Below are positions 12,778-26,957 of a stretch of 64,000 nt of DNA, piece by piece. Where the stretch lies: the NCBI GenBank assembly GCA_013178125.1, contig JABLXJ010000001.1:326538-390537 (forward strand), in the 5' to 3' direction. The notes under the pieces are model-generated. The model did no database searches. It was not told the DNA's origin and saw only the letters and a program-made list of their open reading frames with translations. Within the stretch, counting starts at the first letter, position 1; the number at the start of each line of letters is the position of its first letter. A program made the position numbers and the translations under genes. Source of the DNA: Bacillota bacterium (GTDB lineage Bacteria; Bacillota; SHA-98; Ch115; JABLXJ01).

Positions 12778-13338
12778 ATGCCGGAGATGAAAAGGCTGAT
12801 CTGCCTCGATCCAGGACACGGTGGGGTGGACCCCGGAGCTATAGGCCAGGCCGGGATTAAGGAAGCGGATATTAACCTGGCCGTAGCGATGAAGCTCAAG
12901 ACGGAGCTGGCTGAGAGAGGCATTCCCACTGTAATGACCAGGGATGACGATACGTTCGTGTCGCTCCAGGATCGCGCATCCAAGGCGAATGCTGCGAATG
13001 CTGCGGTTTTTATTTCCCTGCACTGCAATTCGGCTCAAAACCGCGAAGCGAATGGTGCCGAGGTTTACTACTGCATTGGCAGCAGGCCCGGGGAAGCCCT
13101 GGCGAACGCGATACATGCTTCCCTGATCAAGGCTACCGGCCTCGTCGATCGTGGTGTGAAGGGGACAGGCTTCTATGTCCTCCGGCATACCAAGATGCCT
13201 GCTGTCTTGGTGGAGCTCGCGTTTATTTCTAATTCGGGAGAGGAGGAGCTATTGGCAAATGAGGGATTCCAGTTGAAGGCCGCAAGGGCCATTGCCAGCG
13301 GGATAATAGATTATCTGAAAGGAGCGAGGAAAATATGA
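12778..13338 (+). CDS. N-acetylmuramoyl-L-alanine amidase (endolysin, Amidase_3-type)
   Basis: Motifs CLDPGHGG and LHCNS...EVYY; lysis cassette position. Confidence 0.85.
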   Translation: MPEMKRLICLDPGHGGVDPGAIGQAGIKEADINLAVAMKLKTELAERGIPTVMTRDDDTFVSLQDRASKANAANAAVFISLHCNSAQNREANGAEVYYCIGSRPGEALANAIHASLIKATGLVDRGVKGTGFYVLRHTKMPAVLVELAFISNSGEEELLANEGFQLKAARAIASGIIDYLKGARKI

Positions 13339-14147: not shown

Positions 14148-15164
14148 ATGGCTACAATAAAGGACGTTGCAAGGGAAGCAGGGGTATCTATAGCCACTGT
14201 TTCCCATGTGCTAAACAATACTACTTTGGTAAGCGAGAAAACTGCGCAAAAGGTACTGGCAGCGATTAAAAAGGTCAATTATCATCCAAATAGCGTCGCC
14301 CGTAGCCTGGTCACTAAGGTCACTATGACGCTGGGTATTATCATTTCTAATATCACAAATCCATTTTATCCTGAAGTGGTTCACAGCATTAGTCGGGCAG
14401 CCGCAAAGAATGGATATGATATCATTCTCACGAGTACGAACAACGACGAAGAGGGTATTGCTCAATCAGTTCGCACTTTGTGTAAGCGAAAGGTTGACGG
14501 GGTTATTATCTTGGCTAGTAAATTTGATGATAATTTAATCTCTCAACTTACCGAACAAGGCATGGAAGTCGTTGTCTATGATAGGAATATCCCTACACTT
14601 CCGGTAGATAGTGTAGAAATTGACTATGAATTTGGGATATCGCAAGCTATACAATATCTGAAGGATCTAGGTCACACCCGTATTGGGTATATAGGTGGGG
14701 CACCTGATTGGTTGACTGCTCAAAAACGTCTAATAGCATTTCAAAATGCCATGTCTAGATATGGCTTAAAAATAGATGAGCGTTTAATTGTCGCGAAAGA
14801 CTGGACATTACGAGGCGGATTTCAGGCAATGAATACTATGTTGCGGATAAAAAGCAGACCAACGGCAATAGTTGCGTGTAATGATATAGTCGCTGTAGGA
14901 GCCTTAAAGTCTATTAGAAGAAAAGGTCTAAAATGTCCTGAGGATATTTCAGTTGTAGGAATTGATGATATTGTATTGGCATCATTGATTACACCGGCTC
15001 TTACAACCATTGCCTTACCTCGAAATCAAATTGGCGAGGTTGCTACGAAAATGGTTATAAAACGGCTTAGACATAAGGGGCCTCACAGCCAGAAACCCTA
15101 CACAGTCATATTCAGACCCAATCTGGTAATCCGGGACTCGACAGGGCCCCCTTTTTTCAAGTAG
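14148..15164 (+). CDS. LacI-family transcriptional regulator
   Basis: N-terminal HTH MATIKDVAREAGVSIATVSHVLNN; sugar-binding-like C-terminal domain; RBS ggagg. Confidence 0.9.
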   Translation: MATIKDVAREAGVSIATVSHVLNNTTLVSEKTAQKVLAAIKKVNYHPNSVARSLVTKVTMTLGIIISNITNPFYPEVVHSISRAAAKNGYDIILTSTNNDEEGIAQSVRTLCKRKVDGVIILASKFDDNLISQLTEQGMEVVVYDRNIPTLPVDSVEIDYEFGISQAIQYLKDLGHTRIGYIGGAPDWLTAQKRLIAFQNAMSRYGLKIDERLIVAKDWTLRGGFQAMNTMLRIKSRPTAIVACNDIVAVGALKSIRRKGLKCPEDISVVGIDDIVLASLITPALTTIALPRNQIGEVATKMVIKRLRHKGPHSQKPYTVIFRPNLVIRDSTGPPFFK

Positions 15165-15327
15165 TGGGTTATATCTTTTCAATAGTCTTCTATAGGTCTA
15201 CAATTGACCATAGCATTGGCCCAGTATGGGATTCCGTATAAGGGGGTGGGTATATGATCTAGGGGACGCTTGATAATTGGTGAGATCTTTTGGTAACTAA
15301 GATAAATTGCAAAGGGGTGTATGGTTA

Positions 15328-16359
15328 ATGAAGGTCCGACAAGTAAATAGATATGTTATTCTTGTGTCGTTGATAGTCTGTATTTCATTTATTCTTATGG
15401 GAACCCTATCTGCTTTTGCTAAAACACCCACGATCGCCTTAGTTCCAAAATGGGAGGGCATTCCTTATTTCACTGTTGCTGCCGAAGGGGCTAAGCTAGC
15501 TGGTAAACAACTAGGGGTTAATGTAATCTACGTTGGCCCGAGCGAACCCGATGCCACTCAGCAGGTTCAAGTTATTAATAATTTGATTTTACGTGGAGTT
15601 GATGCTATAGGTATATCCGTTATGGATGCTAATGTACTAAAACCTGTCATCAAGAAGGCAAGGGAAGCTGGCATCCATGTTTTCACTTGGGATTCCGATG
15701 CCCCGGACTCTGAGCGGGAAGTCATGGTCCAACAAGTATCTCCAAAGGAACTCGGGTACACTGTAATGGATCTTCTTGCAAAAGAAATGAACTACAAGGG
15801 CAAATTCGCTATTATCACTGGCGATCTAGCTTCTAACCAGCTCAACGAATGGATGGAGTATGAAAAGGAACGCTACCAACAAAAGTACGCCAAGACAATG
15901 GAACTCGCTAGTATAAAAGCTCCTGGGGTTACTTTCGATAAGGTCTTTGATACTGTAAGCACTATGATGCGGACTATGCCCGAGATTACCGGCTATATCG
16001 GGGAGCATTCGGAAGCTGGGCCTGGAATTGCTGCCGCTGCCGAACATGTTAAGGTTTCCCCGCAAAAGGTGGTTGCGGTAGCTATCACTACTCCTGACAA
16101 CATGAGGAAGTATTTCAAGAAAGGAAACTCGGTCGTCCGCTATGGAGTTCTTTGGGATGTTAAAGCCTTAGGCTATGTGTCCGTTTGGGTAGGTAAGCAA
16201 CTGATTGAAGGAAAGCCACTTACAGATAAAGTACCAGGTATTGAGCAATTTGAGGCAATTGAGGAAGGGTACCCTAAATATATCCCTGAAAAGAAGTGGG
16301 TACTACTTGGTCCACCTTTAATATTCAATGAGAAAAATATAGATAAATATCATTTCTAA
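15328..16359 (+). CDS. ABC transporter substrate-binding protein (periplasmic-binding-protein type 1, sugar-type)
   Basis: Signal peptide then PBP1-like sequence; start placed at ATG 15328 after RBS (track start 15307). Confidence 0.8.
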   Translation: MKVRQVNRYVILVSLIVCISFILMGTLSAFAKTPTIALVPKWEGIPYFTVAAEGAKLAGKQLGVNVIYVGPSEPDATQQVQVINNLILRGVDAIGISVMDANVLKPVIKKAREAGIHVFTWDSDAPDSEREVMVQQVSPKELGYTVMDLLAKEMNYKGKFAIITGDLASNQLNEWMEYEKERYQQKYAKTMELASIKAPGVTFDKVFDTVSTMMRTMPEITGYIGEHSEAGPGIAAAAEHVKVSPQKVVAVAITTPDNMRKYFKKGNSVVRYGVLWDVKALGYVSVWVGKQLIEGKPLTDKVPGIEQFEAIEEGYPKYIPEKKWVLLGPPLIFNEKNIDKYHF

Positions 16360-16398
16360 ACTCTATTGTAAACCCCTAATTCGTCTAGGAGATAAGGT

Positions 16399-16420
16399 TA
16401 ATATATATATATATATATAT
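16399..16420. repeat. (AT)n dinucleotide microsatellite, about 11 units
   Basis: taatatatatatatatatatat read directly. Confidence 0.9.
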
Positions 16421-16427
16421 GCCACTT

Positions 16428-16450
16428 GGCTCCGGGGTAAACCCGGAGCC
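16428..16450 (+). other. perfect 9-bp stem-loop between substrate-binding and ATPase genes (no T-run)
   Basis: ggctccggg gtaaa cccggagcc. Confidence 0.5.
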
Positions 16451-16508
16451 GTCTCTGAGTATACACTCTACTGGCCTTCGCAGGCCTGATGAGGGGAGAG
16501 CCTTCTTA

Positions 16509-18002
16509 ATGGCGGAATTAATGGAATTAAAGGGTATAAGCAAGGAATTTGGAGGCGTCAAGGCCCTAGTAGATGTAGATTTTGAGCTGAGGTCAGGCGA
16601 GATTCATGCCTTAGTCGGGAAGAATGGAGCGGGTAAGAGTACGCTTGTCCAAATCCTTTCCGGGGTAATAAATCCAGATAAAGGTAAAATTTTTTATAGA
16701 GACCAAGATGTAACCTGCTGGAATAACCGGCAAAAACGACTACGGATTTCCCACGTATTTCAACATATACAATATTTTCCAGAGCTTCCTGCTGGAAAGA
16801 ATATCTTCATTGGTAGGGAAGAGGTCGATCGCTACGGTAGACTTAAGTGGGATCAAATGTATGGGAGTCTGGAAGATATTTTATCTAAATTCGGCATCGA
16901 TAAACAGATTCTTTATCGGCCGATGAGAGAGCTTTCTGTAATGGAAAGAGAAATCATCGCAATTGTAGAAGCCCTTTCCAAAAATTCAGAGATATTCATT
17001 TTTGATGAGCCTACTGCTGCGTTAGGAAAAGATGAGGCTGAGCAACTTCTATCGGTAATTCAGGACCTTAAGGCCAAAGGTGCGGCTATTGTCTATATTA
17101 GTCACCGTCTTGAAGAAATTATAGGATTTGCAGACTATGTAACGGTACTACGTGATGGTCGAAAGATCTCCACTGATTCCATGGCTTCTATAACTAAAGA
17201 GCAGATCGTACACAAAATGGTTGGTGAAAAGATAGGACACATTTATCCTCACCGAACTACCCAACATCGTGGCTCTGTTTTACTGAAGGTGAGCCAGCTA
17301 ACTAAACGTTCTGTTTTTGAAAACATTACATTTGAAATACACGAAGGGGAAATCTTAGGACTAGCTGGGCTATTAGGTGCGAAACGAACAGACATTGCTC
17401 AAGCTATATTTGGCACGATAACCTATGATTCGGGTACAGTTGAGATTGAAAGAATCTCCTTGCCTAAGCATAGTCCCGCGCTCTCCATCGAAAAAGGTCT
17501 AGTGTACTTACCTGAGAACAGGCAAGAAGACGGTTTAATCCTTAGTACAAGCATCCGAGAGAATATCACTTTGCCAATCCTTCGTCAATTCGGTGGGAAT
17601 GGTTTTTTAAACCGCATTGTAGAACGGAAGATCGTTCAGGATAGTATCGACCGTCTAGGGATTAAGGCTGAAGATATTGATACTTTAGTAAATCATTTAA
17701 GCGGTGGAAATCAACAAAAAGTCTTATTCGCTAAATGGCTCAACACCTCTCTGAAAGTGTTAATGCTTGACGAACCAACCCAGGGTATTGACGTTGAGGC
17801 GAAAGCAGAAATCCACCGCATCCTCGGCGATCTTGTTAATCATGGCATAGGAATCCTTCTTATATCTTCTGACCTGGAGGAGCTCATAGCTATGAGCGAT
17901 CGAATCATCGTCGTCCACGAAGGGCGGATAATCTCCGAATTTACAGGTAGTGAAGTGACTATCGAAAAAATCCTGCTCGCCGCTATGGGGGTGCAACAAT
18001 GA
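16509..18002 (+). CDS. ABC transporter ATP-binding protein, two fused nucleotide-binding domains
   Basis: Walker A GKNGAGKST, LSGGNQQK signature; start placed at ATG 16509 after RBS gaggggagag (track start 16419 lies in the AT repeat). Confidence 0.9.
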   Translation: MAELMELKGISKEFGGVKALVDVDFELRSGEIHALVGKNGAGKSTLVQILSGVINPDKGKIFYRDQDVTCWNNRQKRLRISHVFQHIQYFPELPAGKNIFIGREEVDRYGRLKWDQMYGSLEDILSKFGIDKQILYRPMRELSVMEREIIAIVEALSKNSEIFIFDEPTAALGKDEAEQLLSVIQDLKAKGAAIVYISHRLEEIIGFADYVTVLRDGRKISTDSMASITKEQIVHKMVGEKIGHIYPHRTTQHRGSVLLKVSQLTKRSVFENITFEIHEGEILGLAGLLGAKRTDIAQAIFGTITYDSGTVEIERISLPKHSPALSIEKGLVYLPENRQEDGLILSTSIRENITLPILRQFGGNGFLNRIVERKIVQDSIDRLGIKAEDIDTLVNHLSGGNQQKVLFAKWLNTSLKVLMLDEPTQGIDVEAKAEIHRILGDLVNHGIGILLISSDLEELIAMSDRIIVVHEGRIISEFTGSEVTIEKILLAAMGVQQ

Positions 18003-18979
18003 ATTCTTCTGGACCCGTACGCAAGACCCCCAGGTCAAATCAGTTTGGCTCAATGCTATACGAACGAGAAGTCCTTGCCCTTTTGGTAGCGATAATTATG
18101 TGGGTTGCATTTGGGTTGATAAATCCACGTTTTCTGACATGGGCAGGCATAACTGACATTATTTTTTCCTCAACAGTTATTGCAGCCGGGGCTCTTGGGA
18201 GCAGCATGGTTATTATAGCGGGCGAATGGGATCTCTCTGTCGGTTCGATGTTAGCTTTGCAGGCGACCATTATTGCGCTACTCGCTAGCTCAAATGTGGT
18301 TACCAATCTATTTGTTATGATCCTGGTTGTGATAGTAATCGGAATGGTGCTTGGTTTCATTAATGGGATTCTGGTATCGTTTGGGGGACTTTCTTCGATT
18401 ATAGTTACCATTGGTACTATGTTTGTTTACCGAGGTCTGTGCTTGATAATAGCTGGTGGACGATGGTTTACCAGTCTACCAGCGTGGTTAACTAGTGTCG
18501 GTCAGGTATCAACATTTGGTATAAGGCCTTCTCTCATCATTATCCTTGTTCTTACTGCAATATTATCTCTTTTCATGAGCCAAACAAGACTAGGGCTTTG
18601 GATTTACGCTTTAGGTGGGAATGAAAACGCACTACGTCTAAAAGGGATAAATGTACGCTGGGTAAAAGTATTAGTTTTCTGTACTACCGGGGTACTAGTT
18701 GGTGTGGCCGCATTGATTTTGGCTGGTCAGTATGGGTACGTGCAGACTGATATTGGCTATGACTACGTCATGGCCACCATTGCAGCAGCGATTGTTGGAG
18801 GTACCAGCGCCTTCGGCGGTCGAGGTCGTATAGGCGGAGCTATTATTGGAGCGCTGTTAATTGGAATCATGAAAACAGGATTGGTTGCTATAAACATTCC
18901 AGCCCAATGGTATAACGTAGTGCTCGGCATCCTGATCTTACTTTCAATGACCAGGGAAATGCTACAGAAACGTACCTGA
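17999..18979 (+). CDS. ABC transporter permease
   Basis: Polytopic membrane protein; start overlaps ATPase stop. Confidence 0.85.
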   Translation: MNSSGPVRKTPRSNQFGSMLYEREVLALLVAIIMWVAFGLINPRFLTWAGITDIIFSSTVIAAGALGSSMVIIAGEWDLSVGSMLALQATIIALLASSNVVTNLFVMILVVIVIGMVLGFINGILVSFGGLSSIIVTIGTMFVYRGLCLIIAGGRWFTSLPAWLTSVGQVSTFGIRPSLIIILVLTAILSLFMSQTRLGLWIYALGGNENALRLKGINVRWVKVLVFCTTGVLVGVAALILAGQYGYVQTDIGYDYVMATIAAAIVGGTSAFGGRGRIGGAIIGALLIGIMKTGLVAINIPAQWYNVVLGILILLSMTREMLQKRT

Positions 18980-19004
18980 GCATATGAGGAGTGGTGAATT
19001 GAGC

Positions 19005-19943
19005 ATGGTCAAAGAAGCTATGGCAGCCAAGCGTGAATCTTTACTACTCATAATCCTGGTGGCCTTGATTCTTTTATTTGGAGGGCTCTCGCCTAACTTC
19101 CTTGTTCCGTACAGCTTCACTGTAATGAGCCAGTATCTAGCGGAAATAGGGTTACTATCCTTGGCTATAACTATAGGGCTCATTAGTGGGCTTCTTGATC
19201 TGTCAATAGGTTCGATCTTCGGGCTTTCTGCTGTTTCTATTGGCTTACTGGCTAAGACCGGATTAAATATCTGGGTGTCAGCATTTCTTGGAGTTATAAT
19301 TGGCATGGTAGCTGGCGGATTGAATGGAATCCTGGCAGCCTTTACGCCCATTCCCCCATTGATTATTACTCTGTCTACTCAATTCATCTTTGCAGGGATT
19401 AGTCTAGCACTAACTCGCGGCAACCCAGTCACTGGTCTCCCTGAAAATTATTCGTTCATAGGCCAGACTCAGATTGGTCCGGTACCACTGCAACTACTAG
19501 TTTTTCTAATCGTTACGATTGCCTCTTCAATTCTTATGCAGTACATGGGGCTAGGACGCAAGATGCGCCTCATGGGGAAAAGTAACCGTGTTGCATGGTT
19601 TTCTGGTGTCAACGTCCCTATGGTAAAGATCATGGTCTATGTGTTATCCGGCTTTCTTAGCGCTTTAGCCAGTATTATTCTTACTTCAAGAGTAATGACA
19701 GCTAGGCCGGATGCTGGCCAGACTCTAGGGTGGACAATCCTGACAGTAGCTTTTTTAGGCGGCGCTTCCCTGGAAGGGGGTACTGGTACGATCCTAGGGG
19801 CATTATTCGGTGCCATGATTATTGTGATATTATCTACAGGGATCGAGGTTGTCGGTTTAGATATCGGCCAGCGGTTGTTGACTCAGGGTTTGGTTTTGCT
19901 GGTTGTAGCAGGAACAGGTAGACTTCTTAAAATCAAGGATTAG
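19005..19943 (+). CDS. ABC transporter permease (second)
   Basis: Polytopic membrane protein; ATG 19005 has an RBS (track start 18984 does not). Confidence 0.8.
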   Translation: MVKEAMAAKRESLLLIILVALILLFGGLSPNFLVPYSFTVMSQYLAEIGLLSLAITIGLISGLLDLSIGSIFGLSAVSIGLLAKTGLNIWVSAFLGVIIGMVAGGLNGILAAFTPIPPLIITLSTQFIFAGISLALTRGNPVTGLPENYSFIGQTQIGPVPLQLLVFLIVTIASSILMQYMGLGRKMRLMGKSNRVAWFSGVNVPMVKIMVYVLSGFLSALASIILTSRVMTARPDAGQTLGWTILTVAFLGGASLEGGTGTILGALFGAMIIVILSTGIEVVGLDIGQRLLTQGLVLLVVAGTGRLLKIKD

Positions 19944-19961
19944 AGTAAGGGGGAAATGAAT

Positions 19962-20702
19962 ATGAGTAGTGATTTCATCCATACGCTATCCAATATATTA
20001 AGTAATCTGGAGTTTGTTGATTTAAGTCACCGATTAGAGGAGGATATTCCAACTTTCCCAACACATTCCCATTTTTATCATTTGAAATGGGAGAATCCTG
20101 ATGATCCCGCTACGATGTTTCAATTCATGATGCATGAACATAATGGTACCCATGTCGATGCTCCAGCCCATTATCTAAGGGAAGGTGTAGGGAATAGGGA
20201 GGATGCATGGATTGATGCTATTCCGCTCCAAACTCTCATTGGCCCTTGTAAGGTTCTTCAATTAGCAGGATTCGATAACCGTAATCTCTTATCCAAGTGC
20301 CATATTGAGGACTGGGAAGCTAATCACGTTCGAATCCAGAAAGATGATATTGTACTCTTGAATTTCGGCTGGCATAAACGTTGGACTACCTCTAAGGAAA
20401 GATATCAGTTCGCTAAAGATTGGCCGGGGCTCACGAGGGACGCGGCCCTTTACCTAGCCGAAAAAGAGGTTAAGGCTGTGGGGACCGATTGCATTGGACT
20501 CGATTGTTGTGGTAGTACCGAAATACCAGCTCATGATGTGTTACTTGCTCGCAACATATTAATCATGGAGAATTTAGCAAATCTTGATTTATTACCGGAT
20601 GAAAGCTTCTTCATCGCTTTTCCGCTAAAAATTAAACAAGGTTCTGGGTCTCCTATACGGGCGGTTTCCCTTATACCCAAGACAGGGGGATCGATGACGT
20701 AG
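19962..20702 (+). CDS. cyclase-family protein (kynurenine formamidase-like metal hydrolase)
   Basis: Motif HEHNGTHVDAPAHY; RBS taagggggaa. Confidence 0.8.
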   Translation: MSSDFIHTLSNILSNLEFVDLSHRLEEDIPTFPTHSHFYHLKWENPDDPATMFQFMMHEHNGTHVDAPAHYLREGVGNREDAWIDAIPLQTLIGPCKVLQLAGFDNRNLLSKCHIEDWEANHVRIQKDDIVLLNFGWHKRWTTSKERYQFAKDWPGLTRDAALYLAEKEVKAVGTDCIGLDCCGSTEIPAHDVLLARNILIMENLANLDLLPDESFFIAFPLKIKQGSGSPIRAVSLIPKTGGSMT

Positions 20703-20750
20703 CTTCTCACCGAAAATGTAAGGATAATTAAATATAGGGAGTGGGATCAG

Positions 20751-21935
20751 GTGGTTTGTAGAAATAGTATTAGTAACGAATTCCGGCAAAGATGGGTTAA
20801 ACTGAAGGAAAAAATGATTACGAGGGGGCTAGATCTTCTCTTTATTTATTCCAATGACCGTGCTGTATTTGGTCCTGGAAATATACGGTACCTGTCAAAT
20901 TTCCCTGTACACTTTGAACACGCAGCGATCATTATGCCAAGATTCGGGGAACCCATCTTGGCAGTCGGACCGGAAACAAGGGAATATGCTGAGTTAAGTT
21001 CCGAAGTTAAAGATATACGGGTAATTAAAGAGTTCGCCATTCCCGATGAAGAATATCCTTATACCAGTATGACCTCTTTATCAGCGATCTTGGAAGAAAT
21101 CAGGTCAAACTCGGGCAACGAGGTAAGGTCAATAGGCCTCATTGGCTTAGATTTATTGCCCTGGTCCCTCTATCAGGTTCTTGAAAATACTCTTCTATCG
21201 AACCGACGGGTGGAAAACGCCGAGGACATTTTGATAGATATGAGATCGATTAAAAGTCAATATGAAATTGAAATAATTGAAGAAGGGTATGCGATTGCCG
21301 ATAAAGCAATGGAGGCCTGTGTCGAAGCCGTTCATGTCGGGACAACAGAGTTGGCTATTGCTGCGGCTGGGGAAGCAGTGATGAGAAAGCTAGGTGCCGA
21401 GGGGTATGCGATAGATACAATCGTTGCTAGTGGTAAACAAAGAACCTATCCGATTGTAGTCCGTCCTTCTGATCGTAAAATTGAGAAAGGCGATGTGGTT
21501 TTAATCACTATGGGTCCTCGATATAAGGGGTACAATCCTGCGATCGGTCGACCTGTGATCGTGGGGGATGCACCGGAAGTAATTATCGAGGCAATGCAAT
21601 TAGCATTAAAAGCTCAGCATGCCGCGGAGGCAGCCTTACGCCCCGGCGCCATCGGGTGTGACGTGGAGGGAATGGCCCGTAAAGTCTTAGCGGAGGCTGG
21701 GCTTGAGCAATACTTTGTTTATGCCGGGGTGCATAGTGTTGGGCTAGCCGAATTTGAGCCTCCGATCCTTTCCCCCAAAAGTAACCTGCAGGTGAAGGAG
21801 AATATGGTCTTGTCCATCGATATCCCACTTTTCCTTACCCCATGGGGTGGATTCCGTTACGAGGATGGATTCGTCGTTACCAGCGATGGTTGTCGACGAT
21901 TGAATCATTTCCCGCGAGAGATCATTAAAGTTTAA
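20751..21935 (+). CDS. M24-family metallopeptidase (Xaa-Pro peptidase / creatinase-like)
   Basis: Creatinase-like N-domain plus M24 pita-bread region (GVHSVGLAEFEPP, FRYEDGFVVT). Confidence 0.8.
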   Translation: MVCRNSISNEFRQRWVKLKEKMITRGLDLLFIYSNDRAVFGPGNIRYLSNFPVHFEHAAIIMPRFGEPILAVGPETREYAELSSEVKDIRVIKEFAIPDEEYPYTSMTSLSAILEEIRSNSGNEVRSIGLIGLDLLPWSLYQVLENTLLSNRRVENAEDILIDMRSIKSQYEIEIIEEGYAIADKAMEACVEAVHVGTTELAIAAAGEAVMRKLGAEGYAIDTIVASGKQRTYPIVVRPSDRKIEKGDVVLITMGPRYKGYNPAIGRPVIVGDAPEVIIEAMQLALKAQHAAEAALRPGAIGCDVEGMARKVLAEAGLEQYFVYAGVHSVGLAEFEPPILSPKSNLQVKENMVLSIDIPLFLTPWGGFRYEDGFVVTSDGCRRLNHFPREIIKV

Positions 21936-22276
21936 TCCATACAGTGAGGGACCCTTATGGTGGGCACTCCCGGCTACATGAGATGGTCTTGGCACCACAC
22001 TATACAGTCCGAACAGGGGAAGATACAGCCATTCCTACGGCTTGGAGTGCCTTCCCGCAAACCCCCGGCAGGGGAAGACGTAGACGATAACGTTGACCCT
22101 CTTGTTCTACCTACATTTCGCACCCCTCAGGGGTATGTGGGGACATTTTCTGAGGTCATATGTGAAGATGGGACGGTAGCGCCCGTGTAATAGCGTAAAA
22201 AGTAGAAGGGGCCCGGGAAAGAGGAAGGCCCCCCTTGATAGATGAGGTTTTATTAAACCTCCCGTTCGCCCCTTGT

Positions 22277-22307
22277 GCCCGGTCGGAAGGCCGGGCTTTT
22301 ATGTTTT
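22277..22307 (+). terminator. intrinsic terminator
   Basis: Stem gcccgg/ccgggc with 8-nt loop followed by ttttatgtttt. Confidence 0.5.
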
Positions 22308-22336
22308 ATCTAAATTCCAAAAGAATCTCCTCATAG

Positions 22337-22368
22337 CTATTGACATATTCAATAATTATTGATATAGT
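22337..22368 (+). promoter_or_regulatory. sigma-70-like promoter (TTGACA, 17 bp, TATAGT) with embedded palindrome TCAATAATTATTGA; copy 1
   Basis: Read directly; 30 bp nearly identical to 23511-23540. Confidence 0.5.
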
Positions 22369-22404
22369 ATAAGTGATGAAAGGAAATTGCAGGAGGGAAA
22401 CGAA

Positions 22405-23196
22405 ATGACAAACAGGGCATTCGGAATTGAAATAGAGGCTTATGGAGTGAGCCAGTTCGAGCTAGAGGACAGACTCCGGCAGGCTGGGATACAGGTAAGG
22501 GTTGAAGGGTACAACCATAGCACCAGGGAACACTGGAAAATAGTTAGCGACGGCTCAATCCAAGGCCCGGACTCGTTCGAACTAGTCAGCCCTCCACTGA
22601 GCGGAGAAGAAGGACTCAATCAGATTAGGACAGTATGCCGGGTGCTGGATGAGGTAGGCGCGAAGGTTAACAAGTCGTGTGGCTTCCATGTCCACCACTC
22701 GGCGGCAGACCTGACACCAAAGGCCCTGCAGGCATTGATCGGACTATACACTAGGTTCCAGGGCGCGCTAGACGAGATAGTAGCAAAGAGCCGCCGCGGT
22801 AATAACAATACATACTGCCGGGCCCTTAGCAATGAACTATACTACAGGGCCCTCAGGCGGGATGACTTACAGGGTATTGTATGTTGCCAGGATAGTAGGT
22901 ATTATAAACTTAACCTGCAAGCATATCTGAGGCATGGCACGATAGAGATTCGGCACCACCAGGGCACCGTGAATGCTGACAAAATAATAAACTGGATCAG
23001 GTTGACCCAGGCGATAGTTGAGGCGGCGGTGAGGTTAAACCACAGCAAGCTGAGCTTGGACAACCACACGGGCCGTCTGGATCACGACAGGTGGCACTTC
23101 TGGAACACAGTGAAAAAGGTCTTGGATGCAGGTGAATTCGAGGAGCTAAGGGCATACTACGGGCAGCGGCGCAAGGAGCTCGCCGCTGCCGCCTAG
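22405..23196 (+). CDS. glutamine-synthetase-like amidoligase (Amidoligase_2-type), putative
   Basis: N-terminal FGIEIE and C-terminal GTIEIRHHQGT motifs recalled as typical of GS-like amidoligases; RBS aggaggg 7 nt before ATG. Confidence 0.5.
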   Translation: MTNRAFGIEIEAYGVSQFELEDRLRQAGIQVRVEGYNHSTREHWKIVSDGSIQGPDSFELVSPPLSGEEGLNQIRTVCRVLDEVGAKVNKSCGFHVHHSAADLTPKALQALIGLYTRFQGALDEIVAKSRRGNNNTYCRALSNELYYRALRRDDLQGIVCCQDSRYYKLNLQAYLRHGTIEIRHHQGTVNADKIINWIRLTQAIVEAAVRLNHSKLSLDNHTGRLDHDRWHFWNTVKKVLDAGEFEELRAYYGQRRKELAAAA

Positions 23197-23206
23197 AAAG
23201 GCGGTA

Positions 23207-23446
23207 ATGACTATGAAGGTGGTTACATACGAGGGACAGGTCATAGAAGGGACTCCGGAGAAAATAGTCCAAAAGCTAGCGGATACCAGTTTTACTGATT
23301 CTGGGATGCCCGGCCCTGAATATATGCGGACGGTAGCCCGCAGGATAGCGGCCTTGCATGGCGAGGAGCAAGCAGAGGAGATAGAAGACCCGGAAGGATT
23401 CCTCCGGGTTATGGAGCGGTATGGAGTGCTGCGGATAGAAGAGTAG
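23207..23446 (+). CDS. hypothetical small acidic protein (79 aa), co-transcribed with the amidoligase
   Basis: Starts 10 bp after the amidoligase stop. Confidence 0.4.
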   Translation: MTMKVVTYEGQVIEGTPEKIVQKLADTSFTDSGMPGPEYMRTVARRIAALHGEEQAEEIEDPEGFLRVMERYGVLRIEE

Positions 23447-23510
23447 ATACCATAGGGCACTTATCGTCGATAGAATTCTGCTCAAAAAATCTAAATAAAT
23501 TCATTCTGTC

Positions 23511-23542
23511 TTATTGACATATTCAATAATAATTGATATATT
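23511..23542 (+). promoter_or_regulatory. sigma-70-like promoter (TTGACA, 17 bp, TATATT) with near-palindrome; copy 2
   Basis: ttattgacatattcaataataattgatata, 2 mismatches from copy 1. Confidence 0.5.
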
Positions 23543-23580
23543 AAAAAGGGAAAGGAGATACACCAAAGGAGGCAGTCCTA

Positions 23581-23838
23581 ATGGATAGTAAACAGAAACT
23601 TGGAATACTACAGGCCGAGATGGAGGAAGTTAAGCGGGTGATCAAGAGGGTTGAGGATGCGGCATATAGTACCGGCAACCTTGATGAGGTAGTGGGAGCG
23701 ACCGGAGACTATGGAGTAATCCTGGATGCACTGAGGGAGAAAGAAAATTCCATACGATGGTCGATAGAAGTGGTGCATAGAGAGATTAGGGAAGCCACCG
23801 AGGGTGAAGAAGATTTACTGAGCCAGTTAGTCAGATAA
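23581..23838 (+). CDS. hypothetical small coiled-coil protein (85 aa)
   Basis: RBS aaaggaggcag; follows promoter copy 2. Confidence 0.4.
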   Translation: MDSKQKLGILQAEMEEVKRVIKRVEDAAYSTGNLDEVVGATGDYGVILDALREKENSIRWSIEVVHREIREATEGEEDLLSQLVR

Positions 23839-23891
23839 AATACAGAGCCCGTCGGGAGCCTGAATCCTGGCAGGCAATAAGAGGTGGTACA

Positions 23892-24185
23892 ATGTTAATA
23901 ACATTTGGAGAGGCCGCCCGTAGGTGGAAGATAGATATTTCGACTTTGCATAGGGCGCACCAGAGAGGAGAGCTGCCTGCCCGGCAGTCTGCTGGGTCCT
24001 GGCTTTGCGAGGAGGAGGATGTCCGGGCCGTTTTTGGTGAGGAGAATCCTCCGGAGGGTTGGGTAACGATCCCTGAAGCAGTCAGACTCCTGGGCATTAC
24101 CAAGGCAGCGGTGTACTCAAAGGTGAAACGTGGAATACTGCCTTCGGTGAAAGCCCAGGGCATTTTATGGGTTCCGCGGCCATAA
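23892..24185 (+). CDS. excisionase/MerR-like HTH DNA-binding protein with two HTH_17-like halves
   Basis: Two repeats of the type ITFGEAARRWKIDISTLHR and VTIPEAVRLLGITKAAVYSKVKRG. Confidence 0.5.
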   Translation: MLITFGEAARRWKIDISTLHRAHQRGELPARQSAGSWLCEEEDVRAVFGEENPPEGWVTIPEAVRLLGITKAAVYSKVKRGILPSVKAQGILWVPRP

Positions 24186-24286
24186 AGAAGGACTTTTACG
24201 TTTCTTATCATGCCTATGAGGGATTGAAATGATATTGTGTTTGTTACAGGATTTACTATCATACTTATAAGGATTCCCTTTTTTGG

Positions 24287-24310
24287 ATCCGGTTTTAGAC
24301 CGGATTTTTC
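24287..24310 (+). terminator. intrinsic terminator
   Basis: atccggt tttag accggat followed by tttt. Confidence 0.45.
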
Positions 24311-24416
24311 GATGTATCCTATGGAAACCTTTGTATCACTTGTTGACATCGTGATCAAAACCTGATACGGTTGGAATTGAATGAAAATCCTCCTGCATGT
24401 GGGAAGGGATATTGAA

Positions 24417-25364
24417 ATGACAGCTATGCAGAAGTGGACGAAGGAGTCTGTTGTGGAGGCTATCCATGCACGGTCTAAGAAAGGGCTGGCACTAAATTAT
24501 CAAGCTGTTGTAAAGGACGATGAACCGCTTACAGGTGCCGCCAGGCGATATTTCGGCTCCTGGAATACAGCGTTACAAGCGGCTGGATTTGACCCGGCAG
24601 CGATAAAAAGGGAGGCAAGGAGTGGACTTCGCAGATCGCGCGGCTCCTGGACTAAGGAGGATGTAATCGAGGGTATTCGTAGAGCGGCGGCGGAGGGTCA
24701 AGACCTCTCGGCGCATAGGATGCAACAGTGGGACCCTTCTTTAGTGGCTACGGGCCAGCGGCTATTTGGTTCCTGGGCCGATGCACTCAAGGCCGCAGGA
24801 TACGCGCCTGACCTAATTTACAGGGCTCGTGTGTGGACGGATGATGAAATCCTCAAGCGTGTCAAGTATTTAGCCAAGTATGGCGCTGACCTGACTGACC
24901 GGACTGCATCCGGATACGACAAAGGTCTCTATGCCGCGGCCATAAAACATTTCGGGTCATGGGCTTCTGCCTTGGAACGGGCGGGAGTTCCACCTGAGCG
25001 GCGCACGGCGAAGTGGTCGAAGAATAAGGTTTTGGAGGCTATCCGTAATGGTAGGCGTGATGGCACGATTAAAGCTATAGCTCTGGATTATTTCCCTTCA
25101 TGGGCAACGGCCCTACGGAAGGCAGGTATCCCGGAAGATAAGGCACAAGAAGTCGGCAACCGTATCCGTGAACGACGGGAGGCTCTGGGTATGAGCCAGG
25201 GTGAGTTAGGCCGGTTCTTAGGGTATAGTCATAGGACCATTTCGATGCTGGAACTTGGGCAGCTCCGTGATCCGCGGGTAAGTGTGGCATTGAAGCTGGC
25301 GAAGGCACTGAAGTGTAGTGTTGAGGACATCTTCTATACTGAGGAAAAGGAAATATTATTCTAA
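24417..25364 (+). CDS. DNA-binding protein with four homing-endonuclease-associated repeats (HEAR) and C-terminal XRE HTH
   Basis: Four repeats ending FGSW..AL..AG; C-terminal HTH LGMSQGELGRFLGYSHRTISMLELG; RBS gggaaggga before ATG 24417. Confidence 0.6.
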   Translation: MTAMQKWTKESVVEAIHARSKKGLALNYQAVVKDDEPLTGAARRYFGSWNTALQAAGFDPAAIKREARSGLRRSRGSWTKEDVIEGIRRAAAEGQDLSAHRMQQWDPSLVATGQRLFGSWADALKAAGYAPDLIYRARVWTDDEILKRVKYLAKYGADLTDRTASGYDKGLYAAAIKHFGSWASALERAGVPPERRTAKWSKNKVLEAIRNGRRDGTIKAIALDYFPSWATALRKAGIPEDKAQEVGNRIRERREALGMSQGELGRFLGYSHRTISMLELGQLRDPRVSVALKLAKALKCSVEDIFYTEEKEILF

Positions 25365-25390: not shown

Positions 25391-25816
25391 TTACTTATCC
25401 CTGAGAACCATCAGGTATGGCTCCAGGGCGGCAAGATGTACCGTGCTTGGTGTGCGTTTTCCTTTCTCCCAGGTGGCTATGGTGTGTACATCCACTCCAA
25501 TGGCCCTTGCGAATTCGACCTTCGCCAGCCCGTGGAAAAGGCGGGCTTTCCTTATGCGCTGCCCGAGCGTTTCCTCGGGCAGGGTCTCGAAACCGCCTAA
25601 ATAAGGTATTGGGACGTCAAGAGTCTGGGACAGAATCCGAAGAGTAGGCATGGAGGCCGGTTCTTTCCCGGCTTCGATCCTGCCTATTGTTGCACAGTTC
25701 AAACCGGTGATGGAAGCTAAGTCGCGGATGGTCATGCCCTTCGCTATCCTCGCCCGCCTGAGCCGCAGCCCTGGTGTGTTGCCTGGCCATTCCTGCCTTA
25801 ATACCCACGGTGGCAT
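25391..25816 (-). CDS. XRE-family transcriptional regulator with two HTH domains
   Basis: Two XRE HTH segments (GMTIRDLASITGLNCATIGRIE and LAKVEFARAIGVDVHTIATWE); start uncertain (ATG 25816 or GTG 25837). Confidence 0.6.
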   Translation of the reverse strand: MPPWVLRQEWPGNTPGLRLRRARIAKGMTIRDLASITGLNCATIGRIEAGKEPASMPTLRILSQTLDVPIPYLGGFETLPEETLGQRIRKARLFHGLAKVEFARAIGVDVHTIATWEKGKRTPSTVHLAALEPYLMVLRDK

Positions 25817-25856
25817 ATCTTTCTGTCTGGTTATCACAATTTCAAGGTTGTTGTCT

Positions 25857-26957
25857 TCACGGGCACGGGTTGGACGTTGCTATAAGAGTAAAACGAGCAG
25901 GATACCAGACGGATCCTGAGGCTCTCGATATGGTTATTACGCCATCTTCCAGGGGCTGGCGCAGGGACTCCAGGACATTCCTGCGAAACTCGGGGAGCTC
26001 GTCCAGGAAGAGCACGCCCCGGTGGGCGAGGCTTATCTCCCCCGGTCGCGGGATTTTGCCCCCGCCGATCATCCCTATGTCGGATGCGGTATGATGGGGG
26101 GCCCTGAACGGCCTCGCTGCGATCAGCCCGCTATCGGGCGAGATGAGGCCGGCTATGCTGTAGATCTTGGTGACCTGGATCGCCTCATCCCTCTCCAGCG
26201 GGGGGAGAATGGTTGGTATGCGTTTGGCGAGCATGGTCTTGCCCGATCCCGGGGGGCCTATCATAAGGAGGTTGTGCCCGCCTGCCGCGGCCACCTCGAG
26301 GGCCCGCTTGGCGTGCTGGTGGCCTTTTACATCGCTGAAGTCGACATCGAATTCGATGCTAGGCGAGGCCCCGTTGCTGCCGGCCGGGATCGGGGTGGGA
26401 GCGGAGGATGATGCGTCCAGTTCGCCGGCCAGGAAGGACAGCACTTCATTGAGGCGCCTGAAGGGATAGACCTTTATGCCTTCAACTACCGAAGCTTCCC
26501 GCGCGTTACCGGCGGGCACGATGATGCCGGGCCAGCCCTCGCGTTTTGCTACCTCAGCTATGGGGAGGATGCCTGTTGTGCCGCGGAGCTCCCCATCGAG
26601 GGAGAGCTCGCCGACGATGAGGTATTTTGAGGTGGCCTCCTCGGGGATATCGCCGCACGCCGCCACGATCCCAATTGCTATTGGAAGGTCGAAGCAGGTG
26701 CCTTCTTTTCTGATTGTTGCGGGCGCGAGGTTGACTGTTATGCGCTTTACCGGGAATTCGCGCCCCGAGTTTTTGAGGGCCGCTCTGACGCGTTCTTTGG
26801 ATTCGCGGGTTATGGTGTCGGGCAGGCCGACGATTTCGAAACAGGGGAGCCCCTGGGCGATGTCGACCTCGATCCTGACTACGTAGCCTTCTATTCCGAG
26901 GACTGCACCGCTGAAGGTCTTCGCGAGCAATGTGTCCACTCTCCTTTCCTTTCCCAT
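25857..26957 (-). CDS. comM: Mg-chelatase-like AAA+ ATPase YifB/ComM, 3'-truncated (ends right after NPCP)
   Basis: Lon-like N-domain, Walker A GPPGSGKT, Walker [11 protein letters not shown]; about 366 aa instead of about 500; stop directly after the NPCP motif. Confidence 0.7.

Follow-up and report, generated by a model that had tools for sequence, protein, structure and literature searches.

What a glutamine-synthetase-like enzyme and the small acidic protein encoded directly behind it are doing in a prophage is the question raised by a 64,000-nucleotide stretch of DNA from a Bacillota bacterium (GenBank assembly GCA_013178125.1, contig JABLXJ010000001.1, positions 326,538 to 390,537), which we call the window and whose own numbering is used throughout. 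An original prediction, made from the sequence alone, had proposed here an undescribed module on mobile DNA, composed of a predicted amidoligase, two small open reading frames (ORFs) and an excisionase-like gene, with peptide tagging or protein modification as its possible activity and defence or counter-defence as its possible purpose. In the explanation that we favour, to which we assign a probability of about 0.5 as a whole, the locus encodes a two-subunit amide ligase that depends on ATP, is expressed early under the control of a repressor and belongs to an anti-defence island of the phage. The block would open an accessory region, likewise controlled by a repressor, at the right-hand end of a temperate phage that has integrated in comM.

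The amidoligase gene (22405..23196, + strand) runs from an ATG at 22405 to a TAG at 23196, is preceded by a ribosome-binding site (AGGAGGG at 22391-22397) and encodes a protein of 263 aa that appears to be a minimal ATP-dependent carboxylate-amine ligase of the fold shared by glutamine synthetase (GS), glutamate-cysteine ligase (GCL) and PafA. The protein matched the Pfam family Amidoligase_2 (PF12224) with an E value of 3.2e-45 and 155.4 bits, against a gathering cut-off of 22, over profile positions 2-245 of 245, and also matched PHROG 2443, annotated as "amidoligase enzyme" (E 3e-55). An AlphaFold2 model computed from an input alignment of 36 sequences was confident, with a predicted local distance difference test score of 92.6, and fold comparison placed it among the glutamine-synthetase-like carboxylate-amine ligases; its top structural neighbours included GS, GCL and PafA, and the closest structure was YbdK. 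The full-length profile match and the fold comparison thus bear out the predicted class of enzyme. One of the two motifs by which the enzyme had been recognized, FGIEIE, is indeed N-terminal (residues 6-11), but the other, GTIEIRHHQGT, had been placed at the C-terminus and lies at residues 178-188, in the last third of the protein.

All 29 of the 29 columns that are invariant in the 36-sequence alignment are present in the window protein, and therefore the amidoligase looks catalytically intact and active, as judged by its residues. The invariant residues include E9, E11, E59, H95, H97, R130, R131, R165, K168, N170, E181 and R183, several of which probably act as metal or ATP ligands. The comparison with GlnA and GCS2/YbdK that had been suggested as a check turned out negative: the YbdK/GCS2 model TIGR02050 scored 18.4 bits, below its cut-off of 176.4, PRK13518 scored 13.6 bits, below its cut-off of 395, and the Pfam scan gave no match to the Gln-synt family. 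In that scan, at E values up to 0.1, only Amidoligase_2 and a noise-level Nup85 match were returned, and the Pup-ligase family was not matched. When the amidoligase was used as a query against the PDB, a sequence search yielded a single noise match (E 0.42) and a profile search yielded none. The amidoligase is outside the GS, YbdK and PafA sequence families. An identical protein is present in GenBank as "amidoligase family protein", from a Firmicutes/Bacillota metagenome-assembled genome, and no biochemical characterization of any Amidoligase_2 member was found in the searchable literature.

Most relatives in the same clade are longer than the window enzyme and carry either some 65 additional N-terminal residues that form a helix-turn-helix (HTH) or, ahead of the C-terminal helix, an inserted winged helix of the DUF3489 type, as exemplified by the N-termini encoded at loci L057, L112 and L045 and by proteins P0051, P0052 and P0093. 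The window amidoligase has neither the N-terminal HTH nor the DUF3489 insert. The occurrence of these domains in the relatives suggests DNA targeting or autoregulation of those versions. We also considered whether homologues of 355-393 aa might be fusions of the ligase with the small protein; this was rejected, as the extra length corresponds to the inserted DUF3489 winged helix. As a separate observation, the C-terminus of the window amidoligase (23185-23196) reads ...RKELAAAA, and the last residues are -AA in 63 of the 120 best-matching homologues and -LAA in 27, behind a conserved YYxxR helix. Such an end resembles an ssrA/ClpX C-terminal degron, and the enzyme may be short-lived.

The small acidic ORF behind the ligase gene (23213..23446, + strand) encodes a protein of 77 aa, or of 79 aa if translation starts at 23207. 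The original prediction had counted 79 aa and a 10-bp gap from the ligase stop codon; the gap to the ATG at 23207 is as stated and the protein is acidic, but the ATG at 23213, with a 16-bp gap, is the most likely start, because it is favoured both by the homologue alignment and by the ribosome-binding site AAAGGCGG at 23197-23204. The protein, hereafter the partner, has an isoelectric point (pI) of 4.7 and a net charge of -7, and the median pI of its family is 4.95. To characterize this family, loci encoding relatives of the ligase were retrieved by means of peptide patterns taken from the window ligase. Nearly all of the 134 loci so retrieved have an ORF of about 75-82 aa directly 3' to the ligase gene that can be aligned to the window partner. 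With a profile built from the downstream ORFs, the next gene after the ligase was recognized as a member of the partner family at 131 of 140 related loci, a figure that describes one clade at 40% identity or more and not the whole of Amidoligase_2. The stop and start codons of the two genes are mostly spaced by -4, -1, +1 or +2 nt and usually overlap. In the reverse direction, three look-ups seeded from partner proteins found an Amidoligase_2 gene upstream in six out of six places.

The partner family itself is large and unnamed. Word-indexed protein searches returned only 4 and then 10 homologues, whereas an exhaustive search with a hidden Markov model (HMM) revealed at least 1287 clusters at 50% identity, nearly all of them stand-alone proteins of 70-90 aa. 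The window partner matched the family profile with an E value of 5.9e-22, a value that is partly circular since the profile includes the window partner; the family is supported by independent members through co-occurrence, conservation, gene geometry and the reverse look-ups. The window partner shares the traits of the family, namely a length of about 75-82 aa, the conserved positions, and a location immediately downstream of an Amidoligase_2 gene. The distance matrices of ligases and partners were strongly correlated (Mantel r 0.92, p 0.001), a correlation that is also expected of any two linked genes on the same element. The partner members tested had no match in Pfam, PHROG, NCBIfam or PADLOC, only unnamed phage proteins were matched in BFVD, no fold or sequence relation to any solved structure was detected, and GenBank phages annotate the protein as "hypothetical protein". 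These data sustain the earlier proposal of a partner gene: the small acidic ORF is a genuine conserved partner, and in this clade it is passed on together with the ligase gene.

As to what the partner does, the original prediction had offered two possibilities, a substrate or a partner, and conservation within the family speaks against the first. The best-conserved positions among 135 members are G8, S26, M38, R44 (96%), F63 and L67, which are mostly core residues, and no column of invariant Lys, Asp or Glu was found in these members. The window partner and its close homologues in L001 and L003 end in Glu, which recalls Pup or LysW. The C-terminal residue is variable in the family, being Glu in only about 15% of the 135 members, and the partner of a sister phage (L146), 87% identical to that of the window, ends in ...RIEK, that is, in Lys. 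The predicted topology of the partner is strand-strand-helix-helix-helix-strand, a compact domain with its C-terminus in a beta-strand. A tag of the Pup or LysW type, with a reactive C-terminal Glu, was rejected on the basis of the family-wide conservation and of the Lys-ending sister. We infer that the partner is a non-catalytic specificity or regulatory subunit and not a tag, a role that agrees with the tight coupling of the two genes and with the complementary charges of their products (ligase pI 8.5, partner pI 4.7); ligase and partner would then form a complex, as their linkage suggests.

The arrangement of transcription signals suggested that the pair is set apart from the DNA upstream of it and shares its type of control with the genes downstream. 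An intrinsic terminator (22277..22300, + strand) was predicted by a terminator scan, consisting of GCCCGGTCGGAAGGCCGGGC followed by a T run, with an 8-pair stem containing 7 G-C pairs; from its position, it appears to close the upstream cargo unit and to isolate the amidoligase operon. The promoter P1 (22340..22368, + strand), TTGACA-17 nt-TATAGT with a TG extended -10 element, precedes the amidoligase gene, and a copy of it, P2 (23514..23542, + strand), TTGACA-17 nt-TATATT with the same extended element, follows the partner gene. Each promoter scored 11 of 12. The two lie in a 35-nt direct repeat (22338-22372 and 23512-23546) with 91% identity, the 27-nt core of which has two matches in the window and none in 100 shuffles, in agreement with the duplicated promoter reported previously. 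The spacer of P1 contains a perfect 14-nt palindrome, TCAATAATTATTGA (22349-22362), as a putative operator, and the spacer of P2 contains a 14-nt dyad, TCAATAATAATTGA (23523-23536). The ligase-partner operon thereby shares its promoter and operator type with a cassette of the anti-CRISPR (acr) type that follows it.

This second cassette comprises an ORF for an acidic orphan protein of 85 aa (23581..23838, + strand), with a ribosome-binding site AAGGAGG at 23566-23572, and a gene for a 97-aa protein with two tandem HTH_17 domains (23892..24185, + strand). The 85-aa protein matched nothing in any of the family libraries scanned and was seen besides only on contig L147, where the genes around it run in the same order and which is apparently a copy of the phage. 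L001 and L003 lack it, and L146 has in its place AcrIC5, a 40-aa protein (L146 419-541; PF22147, E 5.6e-13, 49.3 bits against a cut-off of 27), behind a homologous promoter with a dyad and in front of an HTH_17 gene. Because the slot holds AcrIC5 in the sister phage, the 85-aa protein is a candidate new anti-CRISPR or anti-defence protein. The absence from the two relatives and the exchange for AcrIC5 also contradict the earlier assignment of the 85-aa ORF to the amidoligase module. The second promoter copy together with the 85-aa orphan ORF forms, in the window, an insertion between the partner gene and the HTH gene. From the gene order, namely P2 with its dyad, a small ORF and then the HTH_17 gene, the 85-aa ORF and the HTH_17 gene appear to be a separate cassette of the acr-aca (anti-CRISPR and anti-CRISPR-associated) layout, with the 85-aa ORF outside the conserved amidoligase module.

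The gene that had been called excisionase-like is present, and its product passes the excisionase-domain cut-off of TIGR01764 ("excise", 30.3 bits against 28.8), but a function in excision is less likely. The HTH_17 protein is 57-68% identical in L001 and L003, where it directly follows the partner, and a clear homologue is encoded in L146 beside a large serine recombinase, while L001 has a tyrosine integrase and a tRNA-derived attachment site. Because the protein is conserved across integrase types, it is more likely an Aca-like regulator or repressor that binds the dyads of P1 and P2 than an integrase-specific directionality factor, and its two HTH domains would fit the two half-sites of a dyad.

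Directly after the HTH_17 gene, a solitary CRISPR repeat (24200-24230, + strand) was identified, GTTTCTTATCATGCCTATGAGGGATTGAAAT, ending ATTGAAAT, which is followed after about 20 nt by a degenerate repeat (24251-24275, + strand) and by a predicted terminator hairpin (24285-24309, + strand) at the 3' end of the P2 operon. The solitary repeat matched Rfam CRISPR-DR2 with 31.8 bits (E 0.0019), below the gathering score of 37, and at the gathering score Rfam gave no match anywhere in the window. The second repeat has 18 of 31 ungapped matches by hand count, under 20 of 31, and is hence termed degenerate. Only one copy of the repeat motif is present in the window, in which no CRISPR array and no tRNA gene were detected. 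The exact variant of the repeat was not found in metagenome contigs; the motif forms genuine arrays with a period of 66-67 nt in at least 120 such contigs, and solitary or two-unit copies occur in the viral contigs L149, L152, L153, L155 and L156, the last of which has a matching layout of repeat, about 20 nt and degenerate repeat. The segment 24200..24309 is, on these similarities, a candidate RNA anti-CRISPR or mini-array.

The related phages place the pair in comparable surroundings. The closest relatives, L001 and L003, have ligases 64-67% identical to that of the window and the order terminator, strong promoter with an imperfect dyad, ligase, partner and double-HTH_17 gene. No more than 20 nt separate the ligase, partner and HTH_17 genes from one another, as would be expected of a single operon; the terminator of these relatives is equivalent to that of the window and lies just before the amidoligase promoter (TTGACA, 17 nt, imperfect dyad, TATTAT). 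In the wider clade, the named protein that recurs most often beside the pair is a gamma-glutamyl(amine) cyclotransferase of the AIG2/GGACT type, with 4 of the 145 neighbours. L162 and L163 have operons in which amidoligase, partner and GGACT genes are joined, the same three genes are present in Geobacillus phage GR1, and Bacillus phage 031MP004 has the ligase, a weak partner match and the cyclotransferase. In L163, a lambdoid relative, the trio stands first in an operon transcribed away from a Cro-like gene, with ERF next in line, an arrangement that marks an early-operon position. Near the pair, orphan methyltransferases of the Dam and Dcm types also recur. Beyond GGACT and these methyltransferases, the Pfam census of the neighbours showed no strong enrichment of named anti-defence genes. 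In PADLOC-DB v2, the ligase had only a noise match of 13.8 bits and the partner had none. Of the two earlier options, counter-defence is favoured by the acr-type context, and defence has no PADLOC match for either protein. Next to the window pair there is neither a glutamine amidotransferase (GAT)-like thiol peptidase gene nor an AIG2/GGACT gene, both of which were seen in relatives; such a neighbourhood is a contextual trait and does not define Amidoligase_2 by sequence.

From these data we propose the following mechanism. The ligase and the small protein would act as a complex in which the ligase spends ATP to activate a carboxylate as an acyl-phosphate, probably the gamma-carboxylate of glutamate by analogy with every characterized member of the fold, and joins it to an amine of a host or phage target, which would yield a gamma-glutamyl-type amide. 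GS, GCL and PafA activate the gamma-carboxyl of glutamate. Because there are GGACT neighbours in relatives and gamma-carboxyl enzymes among the structural neighbours, a gamma-glutamyl-type amide would be the most economical guess for the product. The small protein would serve as the non-catalytic specificity or regulatory subunit, and the AIG2/GGACT cyclotransferase encoded beside the pair in related phages might remove or process the amide. The operon would be kept off in the lysogen by a repressor bound to the dyad, most probably the double-HTH protein, and would fire early after induction or infection, for counter-defence or host takeover. The location in an anti-defence island is suggested by the AcrIC5 slot, the dyad promoters, the HTH_17 gene and the solitary CRISPR repeat taken together.

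A more specific version of this proposal would make the pair a widespread enzymatic counter-defence of phages, in which the small protein guides the ligase early in infection to a protein or signalling molecule of host immunity, which is then covalently amidated or gamma-glutamylated, and the AIG2/GGACT enzymes of sister phages recycle the adduct. We regard this version as doubtful; if true, it would add an amide-ligase class to the anti-defence mechanisms and provide a function for a family for which the question has been open since 2009.

Several observations weigh against the two-subunit anti-defence ligase. The figure for the near-constant partner describes one clade and not Amidoligase_2 at large, the correlated trees are what linkage on one element would produce by itself, and the complex of the two proteins is deduced from that linkage. 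The anti-defence reading is guilt by association in four closely related phages, and the HTH_17 protein does exceed the excisionase-domain cut-off. Most clade members carry an HTH that the window protein lacks, which could mean DNA-directed or regulatory roles. Finally, the gene neighbourhood differs in other phages: the pair is located among morphogenesis genes, between portal/adaptor and neck genes, in Porphyromonas phages, the ligase is paired with a glutamine amidotransferase-like protein in the Arthrobacter phage Salgado clade, and it lies within larger ligase operons in the Pseudomonas phage PA11 clade.

Several alternative explanations were weighed. The ligase could make a gamma-glutamyl amine or another amide metabolite, for example one that sequesters or mimics a signalling molecule, or could modify phage DNA or one of its nucleotide precursors; the small protein would then bind or carry the substrate. 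The N-terminal HTH or DUF3489 of most clade members could bring the enzyme to DNA, orphan Dam and Dcm genes recur near the pair, GGACT enzymes act on free gamma-glutamyl amines, and YbdK, the closest structure, acts on small molecules; the window enzyme, on the other hand, is without the HTH, no linked nucleotide-modification genes of the kinase, glycosylase or hydroxymethylase types were present, and an HTH fusion fits autoregulation, as in BirA, equally well, so that we consider small-molecule or nucleic-acid chemistry unlikely. Quite unlikely, in our estimation, is lysogenic conversion or superinfection exclusion, in which an envelope precursor, such as teichoic acid or the stem peptide of peptidoglycan, would be amidated by the ligase or extended by an amino acid, so that rival phages could no longer adsorb. 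Iyer et al. (2009) are credited by later papers with having made this proposal for the amidoligase and amidotransferase of phiEco32, and later papers repeat the suggestion of cell-wall modification or secondary metabolism. The "moron" position of the pair between lysis genes and attachment site, with its own promoter and terminator, would suit such a function, as would the fact that peptidoglycan precursors are cytoplasmic and reachable by a soluble enzyme. Against it, the pair is apparently co-transcribed with the HTH_17 gene in L001 and L003 and heads an early operon in lambdoid relatives, the operator-like dyad of its promoter, common to the acr cassette, suggests repression in the lysogen and not constitutive expression, and no envelope-related partner or signal sequence is present.

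The two remaining alternatives assign a different part to the small protein. In a toxin-antitoxin-like or abortive-infection system, the ligase would be a toxin acting on an essential host protein, the small acidic protein would neutralize it, and lysogens would be protected from other phages. Two closely coupled genes, for a basic enzyme and a small acidic protein that may bind it, in a prophage accessory region have this appearance, and the ssrA-like ends, -AA in 63 of 120 and -LAA in 27 of 120 homologues, hint at differential stability; but no match was found in PADLOC, the gene order is enzyme first and partner second, the pair occurs in early operons and in phages annotated without a nearby integrase (Bacillus 031MP004 and Geobacillus GR1), and the linked genes are of the acr type and not defence genes. 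This makes a toxin-antitoxin function very unlikely. Still more improbable is Pup-like tagging, in which the small acidic protein would be the substrate, its carboxylate being joined to target lysines as in PafA-Pup or LysX-LysW. Apart from the Glu at the end of the window partner, the evidence is adverse: the last residue is Glu in only about 15% of the family, conserved columns of Glu, Asp or Lys are absent, the sister protein with 87% identity has ...RIEK at its end, the partner is predicted to be compact with its C-terminus in a beta-strand, unlike the disordered Pup, and no Pup-ligase family in Pfam was matched by the ligase. At the level of the family, conservation thus largely refutes tagging, and with it the substrate role suggested at the outset.

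Outside the block, the flanks confirmed the mobile-element setting that had been described, a prophage block between lysis and cargo genes on one side and a split comM on the other. The upstream flank includes prophage tail and lysis genes, among them that of an Amidase_3 endolysin (12778-13338), a lysis gene upstream of the cargo. A low-GC cargo operon (14148-21935, + strand) encodes a LacI regulator, a sugar-type ABC transporter, a putative cyclase and an M24/creatinase-like peptidase. This block of about 8 kb, with a GC content of 0.39-0.45 against about 0.52-0.55 in the flanking phage DNA, sits inside the prophage between the lysis genes and the amidoligase and is missing from L001 and L003, which gives it the look of inserted metabolic cargo. 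In the approximately 340 nt between the M24 peptidase stop codon and the terminator (21936-22276), no convincing gene and no Rfam match were found. On the other side, a truncated comM (25857-26957, - strand) encodes 366 aa and is cut after residue 366, within the Mg_chelatase domain; the remaining 3' part of the gene, like the phage integrase gene, must be located to the left of the window. Two further regulator-like proteins were noted between the HTH_17 gene and comM. One, of 327 aa (24381-25364, + strand), has three HNH_repeat units and a C-terminal HTH_3 domain and is kept next to the HTH_17 gene in L146 and L147; the other (25391-25837, - strand) has a double HTH_3 and is encoded where the prophage ends, next to the junction with comM. 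These proteins may be repressors or form a lysis-lysogeny switch.

Whether the locus deserves to be called an undescribed module depends on the part considered. The enzyme is already annotated in GenBank, Pfam and PHROGs, so that the description claims too much for it; no characterized function for this combination of genes was found in the searchable literature, and what appears to be new is the obligate partner, together with the acr-type context. Genes annotated as Amidoligase_2 are found in hundreds of phages and prophages, with gut Bacteroides, Porphyromonas, Bacillus, Arthrobacter and Pseudomonas among the hosts, and the function of the family in the searchable literature rests on a computational prediction of 2009 and repeated speculation. 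If a large clade works with a dedicated small protein, single-gene assays may have lacked a subunit. The reduced form in the window is a two-gene cassette of about 1.1 kb with its own promoter, convenient for cloning and testing, and the promoter and operator that it has in common with an anti-CRISPR locus point to counter-defence rather than "auxiliary metabolism". The same 2 kb also yields a candidate anti-CRISPR protein, the 85-aa ORF product, and a candidate RNA anti-CRISPR, the solitary repeat.

Among known systems, the closest is Amidoligase_2/PHROG 2443 itself, a family which Iyer, Abhiman, Burroughs and Aravind reportedly predicted by computation in 2009. The window ligase shares with it the full-length HMM match, the fold, the invariant residues, the carriage by phages and prophages and, in relatives, the linkage to AIG2/GGACT. 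In the Pfam entry, the neighbourhoods of Amidoligase_2 include a GAT-like thiol peptidase in proteobacteria and Aig2 in firmicutes, whereas the window pair has no adjacent amidotransferase or cyclotransferase and its constant companion is a 77-aa protein for which there is no Pfam or PHROG model. YbdK/GCS2 and glutamate-cysteine ligase differ from the window ligase in that the latter is shorter (263 aa against about 370), restricted to mobile elements and provided with a dedicated small partner. In comparison with PafA/Dop and Pup, the window ligase is about half the size of PafA and has no Pup-ligase family match, its partner is predicted to be folded, with a variable C-terminus and without the conserved C-terminal Gly-Gly-Glu/Gln, and no proteasome or Mpa genes are located near the pair. 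The downstream cassette resembles acr-aca operons in its strong promoter with an inverted repeat, its small orphan gene, its HTH gene and the AcrIC5 in the sister slot, and a solitary repeat of a genuine CRISPR repeat family directly downstream is a feature in common with the solitary-repeat RNA anti-CRISPRs of phages; in contrast, an enzyme with a partner subunit is atypical of anti-CRISPR proteins, and the HTH_17 protein falls in none of the Aca families tested. For the partner, the nearest parallels are GS-fold enzymes whose activity is set by small proteins, such as cyanobacterial GS with IF7/IF17 and eukaryotic GCL with its catalytic and modifier subunits. As a functional analogy only, these systems resemble the role that we propose for the window pair, in which a separately encoded small protein would tune a catalyst of the GS fold.

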